Shown here one piece after another: positions 63,601-64,000 of a DNA stretch of 64,000 nt. Each line of letters opens with the position of its first letter. Positions within the stretch are counted from its first letter, which is position 1. The position numbers are program-made. Source of the DNA: a virus (lineage: Duplodnaviria > Heunggongvirae > Uroviricota > Caudoviricetes); IMG/VR virus record IMGVR_UViG_637000265_000001; one strand, written 5' to 3'.

Positions 63601-64000
63601 AAAGAACAAATGGTAGTGTCCGCTATTGCCAGTACACCTCAGGGTGTTTGTCCACACCAAACCTGCCTACCGAAGCGACGGAACAAAAACAGCAGCGGTA
63701 AGGAAGATGAGAACCGACAGCAACAAGGCATGGAAGGGAGCGTTAAAGCGGGCAGGCATTAGCAACTTCCGCTTCCATGACCTGAGGCATACCTGGGCAA
63801 GCTGGCTGGTTCAGTCCGGTGTCTCTCTTCTTGCGCTTAAAGAGATGGGAGGATGGGAAACTCTCGAAATGGTTCAAAGATACGCCCACCTTTCAGCCGG
63901 GCATCTCACCGAGCACGCGAGCAAAATCGATGCGATTATAAGTCGCAATGGCACAAATACGGCACAAGAGGAGAACGTAGTTTACTTAAATGCGAGGTAA

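Follow-up and report, generated by a model that had tools for sequence, protein, structure and literature searches.

The 64,000-nucleotide stretch of DNA analysed here (the window; virus record IMGVR_UViG_637000265_000001) ends in a truncated integrase gene, the relic, that abuts a complete IS600 element. Positions 51404 to 64000, 12.6 kb compared, are 100% identical to Shigella flexneri 5b strain 8401 (CP000266.1) and likewise to a JGI metagenome contig. A look-up of the KilA-N protein encoded at 61404-61925 led to four independent assemblies with the same arrangement (L012-L015), comprising CP000266.1, two other NCBI assemblies and the metagenome contig. The window is the same DNA as the published serotype-conversion island SHI-O of strain 8401, described in the passages devoted to it as gtrA, gtrB and gtrV together with ~15 kb of SfV DNA, its rearrangement being ascribed to IS elements (Nie et al. 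2006, PMC1550401). Those passages make no mention of a truncated int, of the att junction types or of a split P22-like prophage (PMC1550401). According to a later review, SHI-O is inverted between strains (PMC7545054). On the chromosome the island is bounded by the dnaQ region on one side and by an inverted proBA-thrW block on the other.

Phage remnants and insertion sequences of the window

The map below is based on comparison with phages SfII, SfI, SfV and P22 and with a P22-like prophage of E. coli (L032).

1-5614, minus strand: lambda-like late/lysis remnant
5615-6864: IS911
6865-19523, plus strand: remaining half of prophage B; P22-like structural genes, beginning with the 3' part of terL, continuing with portal and coat and ending in a truncated ejection protein gene
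19524-21760: IS composite of IS600 nt 1-84, IS629 (19608-20917), and IS600 nt 82-88 joined directly to IS600 nt 837-1 in reverse complement
21761-40726: prophage A, an SfV/SfI/SfII-like myovirus remnant, from the 3' part of terL through tail genes to gtr genes and the att arm on the gtrA side
37992-39245, minus strand: gtrV
39242-40165, minus strand: gtrB
40162-40524, minus strand: gtrA
40727-40772, plus strand: att core of 46 bp, identical to the thrW 3' end, attP-like, between gtrA and int
40786-41946, minus strand: intact int of prophage B (386 aa, 1161 nt)
41823-42170, minus strand: xis of prophage B (PF12728, HTH_17)
42171-61403: early, replication, nin, Q and lysis regions of prophage B
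61404-62377, plus strand: KilA-N gene (61404-61925, PF04383) and downstream late-region DNA of prophage B, ending at the IRL of IS600
62378-63641, plus strand: IS600, IS3 family, complete, 1264 bp, with terminal inverted repeats that begin TGAGGT; orfA at 62442-62744 (100 aa), orfB to 63598 (272 aa)
63642-64000, plus strand: int relic, a pseudogene fragment (int nt 803-1161), with its stop codon at 63998-64000

The P22-like DNA of the window is split. The structural block at 6865-19523 is 97.3% identical to L032 12001-24659 and collinear with the early-region matches, and at the other end 62053-62377 matches L032 10103-10321, ~0.75 kb upstream of terS. Taken together, the L032 matches to window 53155-62377 and 6871-19523 are collinear with a gap of only ~1.7 kb, which in L032 holds a DUF2560 gene, two small genes, terS and the 5' part of terL. 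It follows from this collinearity that 40727-62377 and 6865-19523 are two halves of a single P22-like prophage B. The notion that 21761-62377 represents one phage genome in vegetative order was rejected, as P22/Sf6-like late DNA forms its right end and leads on into the structural block at 6865-19523, and not into an SfV-like HNH-terS-terL order. The annotation of a truncated ejection protein in L032 ends at the coordinate of the IS600 breakpoint of the window; no biological meaning attaches to this coincidence, the L032 sequence itself continuing. Prophage B is defective because it carries an IS1 (47643-48415), an IS4-family element (~51694-53040) and a frameshifted endolysin gene. The latter, a lambda R-like endolysin at 60291-60768, is shifted near codon 105, which splits it into two ORFs (108 aa and 65 aa) read in different frames.

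Prophage A has no int of its own. Where it meets prophage B the phage similarity switches at the att core, the 46-bp sequence as given in PMC3306764: similarity of SfI/SfII/SfV type ends at 40789 and similarity of HK542 type starts at 40726. A GtrV protein identical to that of the window occurs in prophages at several other chromosomal sites (L022-L024, L026, L030, L031), some of which adjoin a different integrase or biotin-synthesis/dacD-type genes, and this indicates that the gtrV cassette travels on phages of other integration specificities.

The left part of the window holds further debris. The remnant at 1-5614 is a fourth phage remnant, with lambda-like lysis genes and a 172-aa gene that in E. 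coli prophages lies upstream of a lambda-type terminase; in other S. flexneri (L033, L035) this type of remnant is followed by an IS, remnants of type VI secretion genes, dnaQ, rnhA and gloB. On its 5' side the P22-like terL is cut short by the IS911 at 5615-6864, which is 99.5% identical to the copy that phage SfII carries (record 39101-40350). The composite at 19524-21760 is a head-to-head IS600 structure without an IRR end, in which the IS600 fusion shows 1 nt of microhomology and IS629 has the target duplication ACG; on one side of it lies the P22-like ejection-protein gene and on the other the SfV-like terL, both truncated.

An integrase relic between IS600 and thrW

By end-anchored comparison and by repeat search, the relic (63642-64000, plus strand) corresponds to the reverse complement of 40786-41144, with five mismatches to the intact int over the 359 nt aligned. 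These fall at window positions 63646, 63781, 63835, 63919 and 63979 (int nt 807, 942, 996, 1080 and 1140), all at third codon positions and all synonymous, and the encoded tails of 119 residues are identical. The similarity to int breaks off sharply at 63641/63642, and the first base of the relic directly follows the complete IS600 (62378-63641). A preliminary description of this DNA had claimed a second, near-identical int copy on the plus strand at the end of the window, starting exactly at the right end of IS600, and had proposed aligning the two copies. Both claims hold, and the alignment finds the copies non-identical; the position at the window end was correctly given, and the length, put at ~358 bp, measures 359 bp.

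The relic begins at int codon 268 and comprises the last 31% of the gene. While the intact Int matches Pfam PF00589 over residues 184-353 (E = 9.5e-35), the ORF of the relic does so at profile positions 101-170 of 172 only (E = 3.7e-19), corresponding to the last ~40% of the catalytic domain. Retained are HDLRHT (residue 313) and RYAHL (residue 347); absent are the TGLRRS arginine motif (residues 211-216) and the entire N-terminal DNA-binding part. The complete catalytic set of a tyrosine recombinase consists of the box I Arg, the box II His-x-x-Arg and the Tyr nucleophile, and the relic does not have it. Judged by the motifs that it encodes, the relic is a fragment of a PF00589 family member that cannot be active as a recombinase. 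A repeat search of the window for the missing 5' part of int returned, besides the intact int, only matches to the 359-bp tail. The annotation of the 8401 locus calls no gene between IS600 and proA, for which reason an exact-protein look-up with the relic ORF misses 8401.

The chromosomal context is given by CP000266.1, where position 64000 is followed by a 14-nt spacer and then, on the opposite strand, by thrW (tRNA-Thr, anticodon CGT), with proA, proB, phoE and crl following in that order. The extension beyond the window end that had been suggested as a search for thrW/attB thus finds thrW only 14 nt away, and proA thereafter. Across this spacer the relic converges on the 46-bp att core, which is the thrW 3' end, as is characteristic of a thrW integrase, and the spacing between the intact int copy and its att core is equal to that of the relic. 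The relic therefore sits where the int of a thrW-integrated phage natively lies.

The type of integrase is well defined. By megablast the 359 nt of the relic are 99.2% identical to int of HK542 and mEpX2, 98.9% to that of HK75 and mEp213, and 98.6% to that of Shigella phage SfX (U82084). Its 3' end, ...TACTTAAATGCGAGGTAA, is of SfX type and matches the intX 3' end printed as ...TACTTAAATGCGAGGTAA in the supplement of PMC3306764, where the end of SfI-type int differs. Both hallmarks of an SfX/HK542-type thrW integrase, near-identity to SfX int and the ...TACTTAAATGCGAGGTAA end, are therefore present. The att core and the spacing to it are shared between the relic and the thrW-integrating phages SfX, HK542, mEpX2, HK75 and mEp213, from whose integrases the relic differs in retaining only the last 31% of the gene and being unable to act. 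The earlier designation of the gene as P22-type stands at the level of the family and not beyond it. P22 Int is a tyrosine recombinase of the same length as the intact Int, and the P22 order gtrCBA-attP-int-xis is shared too, but the intact Int protein is just 54% identical in amino acids to P22 Int (55% to SfV Int), and P22 int is absent from the megablast matches of the 359-nt relic. Assignment of the intact int to SfV, SfI or SfII is ruled out by identities of ~68% at the DNA and 55% at the protein level. The relic is a non-functional 3' remnant of a thrW-specific SfX/HK542-type tyrosine integrase gene.

The element that truncates it is a genuine IS600. Size, terminal inverted repeats and an orfA/orfB pair with programmed frameshift are those of the family, and the copy at 62378-63641 is >99% identical to IS600 elements annotated in RefSeq ('IS3-like element IS600 family transposase'). 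It is oriented with its IRR end against the relic and its IRL end against P22-like DNA; the sequence to its left is that of the P22-like late region downstream of the KilA-N gene, and is not int, as had been stated from the outset. It is flanked by AAA on one side and GGG on the other and thus has no 3-bp target duplication; the IS600 copy of E. coli CE10, taken for comparison, has CAC/CAC. This absence points to recombination or deletion after insertion and does not speak against the identity of the element. The proposal that IS600 here marks a rearrangement and not a simple insertion is thus borne out by the missing duplication, by the P22-like late DNA on the left and by an IRL flank that varies between strains.

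IS600 has entered int genes adjoining thrW in several separate events across S. flexneri and E. coli. In CP012137.1 (L006 4081-7402) the insertion is a simple one, into an SfII-type int at thrW of which both halves remain. In CP026810.1 (L035 3540-5835) IS600 occupies a different position in an int of non-SfX type and its flanks are rearranged. In E. coli CE10 (L001 8001-9531) it lies, with target duplication CAC, ~230 bp from a degenerate int remnant. Repeated entry of IS600 into thrW-adjacent integrase genes could reflect either target preference or selection for the immobilisation of prophages. Among 5,426 complete E. coli genomes no IS600/int junction of the relic type was found, and CE10, the sole genome in that set with IS600 near a degenerate int remnant at thrW, represents an independent simple insertion.

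The relic and the two int alleles in other genomes

To follow the distribution of the relic, the 124-aa ORF reading across the IS600/int junction was looked up by exact protein identity. It occurs in seven further places (L005-L011), with at most one extra difference from the five-site allele of the relic. In these the relic is followed by the att core, gtrA and gtrB, and thrW adjoins it in none of the seven. Behind gtrB, L006 encodes a protein of 486 aa that carries a Glucos_trans_II domain (gtrII); the products encoded at this place in L007 and L008 have 506 aa (gtrI size) and 437 aa (gtrIV size), respectively. Integration of a serotype-converting phage at the thrW core, next to a relic already in residence, would be expected to create just this relic-core-gtrA junction.

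A precedent for such integration beside a different int remnant has been shown in the serotype Y strain 036, where a 'putative integrase - IS600 - IS629' remnant lies beside thrW (Sun et al. 2011, PMC3306764, Fig. 2, Additional file 1). As in the window, the int remnant there converges on thrW, with IS600 and IS629 next in line, and incoming serotype-converting phages integrate at the adjacent core. However, the remnant of strain 036 ends ...TTACACATCATTAGTACC, as in int of SfI/SfII/SfV type, whereas the relic ends ...TACTTAAATGCGAGGTAA, as in SfX. An int remnant that is SfI/SfII/SfV-like and not of SfX type is also found at thrW in CP026810.1.

The two sides of the relic-associated IS600 behave differently. 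Its IRR side is constant, while its IRL side faces P22-like late DNA in 8401, IS629 in CP012137.1, and in CP026799.1 position 41954 of the window, 8 nt upstream of the intact int, which amounts to the 8401 arrangement minus 41955-62377. Constancy on the IRR side combined with variation on the IRL side is the mark left by repeated deletion and recombination associated with IS600. By these sequence comparisons the relic is an old fixture common to several S. flexneri serotypes.

Full-length counterparts exist for both int alleles of the window. The exact intact Int protein is found directly beside thrW/proA in eight of the ten places shown, and in three of the loci (L039, L041, L046) the int directly at thrW differs from the intact int at 0 of 1161 nt; these three have IS1 between proB and phoE, as in S. 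flexneri loci. The five-site pattern of the relic (G, C, G, G, A) is in turn present in the full-length ints of L042 and L043. Since each allele thus occurs in full-length ints elsewhere and all of the differences are synonymous, the divergence arose in functional phage genes, and the relic and the intact int are distinct alleles and not a recent duplicate. The relic is moreover present in a gtrII strain whose 20-kb locus contig holds no intact int copy. The SfV-like remnant A, which retains the same att core and its gtrA-side arm, adds a third element of phage origin. The relic and prophage B carry two distinct alleles of thrW-type int, which supports more than one acquisition of phage DNA at thrW and, with it, the earlier suggestion of at least two independent integrations.

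History of the locus and its meaning

A canonical thrW prophage is bounded by attL and attR, with int by thrW and gtrA by the distal core in one orientation. The 8401 locus is built otherwise. There thrW is joined to the relic in an attB-like junction and gtrA of A is joined to int of B in an attP-like one, the latter inverted relative to thrW, with the intact int 22.5 kb from the relic. The phage DNA is attached to the relic via IS600. A gtrA-core-intX hybrid junction like that at window 40525-40800 has been obtained in a laboratory tandem lysogen of SfI and SfX (Sun et al. 2011), in which, however, both phages are att-flanked and in canonical orientation next to thrW, whereas the 8401 junction is turned the other way with respect to thrW, and the relic and IS600 lie between the two.

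From the anatomy of the locus, the two alleles, the adjacency of the relic to thrW and its conservation across strains, we consider it probable that the relic is an old, IS600-truncated int native at thrW, that the intact int was brought in separately by prophage B, and that att partners were swapped thereafter. In an ancestor from which several S. flexneri lineages descend, IS600 would have entered int at nt 802/803, and the IRR-int junction would have been inherited unchanged while the DNA at the IRL end was repeatedly replaced. We infer that A and B first integrated normally at thrW and later exchanged their att partners, and the path by which they did so may have been either of two. In pathway (i), B would integrate next to thrW, with A adjoining the relic; an IS600 inserted downstream of kilA would recombine with that of the relic and invert the distal part; and the now inverted attL and attR would recombine, by Int/Xis or by homologous exchange within 81 identical bp. 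A state comparable to pathway (i) is seen for gtrII in CP012137.1, where relic-core-gtrA is inverted relative to thrW. In pathway (ii), excision by Int/Xis would restore thrW-relic and the excised DNA would re-insert through IS600 homology. Both would lead to the same topology, in which the phage DNA is held by IS600 and not by att sites and is therefore unable to excise. A one-step inversion between IS600 copies was considered and fails, since it is an IRL end that adjoins the phage DNA at both 21761 and 62377.

The position of the exchange can be narrowed. As the five relic-specific sites stay linked to IS600, it must lie 3' of int nt 1140, in a zone of 81 identical nt that includes the 46-bp core. 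Such a zone is compatible with site-specific recombination, although not diagnostic of it; homologous recombination would fall there by chance in ~19% of cases (81/419 shared nt). The predicted intermediate, with the relic by gtrA-gtrB-gtrV and the intact int at thrW, was found in none of 24 gtrV contigs.

Other histories of the relic have to be weighed against this one. The relic might be the int of A itself, left from a tandem lysogen in which A lay by thrW: IS600 would have entered the int of A and deleted the DNA from its IRL end as far as the terL of A, and 21761-62377 would later have flipped between two inverted flanking IS600 copies with no need of an exchange at the att core. In favour of such a course, the segment is bracketed by inverted IS600 copies, both with IRL inward and differing at 2 of 837 nt; undoing the flip yields the canonical order thrW-int'-...-gtrA-core-int_B; and the gtrA-core-int junction is exactly the product of a tandem lysogen (PMC3306764). 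Yet the identical IS600/int junction, with the same allele, stands elsewhere on the gtrA side of gtrI, gtrII and gtrIV clusters, which is explained most simply if the relic predates those phages as a resident beside thrW; otherwise the other strains would each need an att-core exchange of their own or a replacement of gtr by recombination. Given the position of the relic in other serotypes, we regard descent from A as less parsimonious and unlikely.

The second copy might instead be an artefact, near-identical inverted repeats beside multi-copy IS elements being a classic setting for misassembly, or a recent intragenomic duplicate of the intact int that has since diverged. Misassembly is very unlikely, for the arrangement recurs in four independent assemblies and in the deletion derivative CP026799.1. 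The relic of the gtrII strain, on its 20-kb contig devoid of an intact copy, and the five synonymous differences, with both allele patterns known from full-length ints, tell against artefact and duplicate alike, and leave either with hardly any probability. Just as improbable is a lone prophage whose int has received a simple insertion of IS600. Such insertions do occur, as in the SfII-type int at thrW of CP012137.1, but here the target duplication and, within the window, the int 5' half are both missing, and P22-like late DNA lies across IS600.

Returning to the resident relic and the swap of att partners, a further and doubtful possibility is that 8401 represents the frozen product of an abortive excision. 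An earlier inversion mediated by IS600 might have left attL (thrW/int) and attR (gtrA/relic) inverted with respect to each other, whereupon Int and Xis of prophage B, in recombining the inverted att sites, would have inverted ~22.5 kb instead of excising it. This would have recreated attB, trapped attP in the chromosome and locked gtrV in place. The locus might then form part of a recurrent, possibly selected route of prophage immobilisation. If true, this history, along with at least three independent IS600 hits in thrW-adjacent ints of S. flexneri, would suggest that serotype-converting prophages are recurrently, and possibly selectively, immobilised.

The feature at the end of the window is an IS-truncated integrase pseudogene in an island, SHI-O, already published in 2006 as IS-rearranged. 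S. flexneri is known for the scrambling of its genome by IS elements, and the findings are unlikely to surprise specialists. What they add, namely the conservation of the relic across serotypes, the pair of attB-like and attP-like junctions and the split P22-like prophage, is of use in annotation and in tracing the history of serotypes. Several S. flexneri serotypes share the relic as a stable marker, and its partner across the att core, be it thrW or the gtrA of a given gtr type, records the acquisition and immobilisation of O-antigen-modifying phages in a lineage. In 8401, gtrV is no longer flanked by excision sites, which helps to explain the stability of the serotype.
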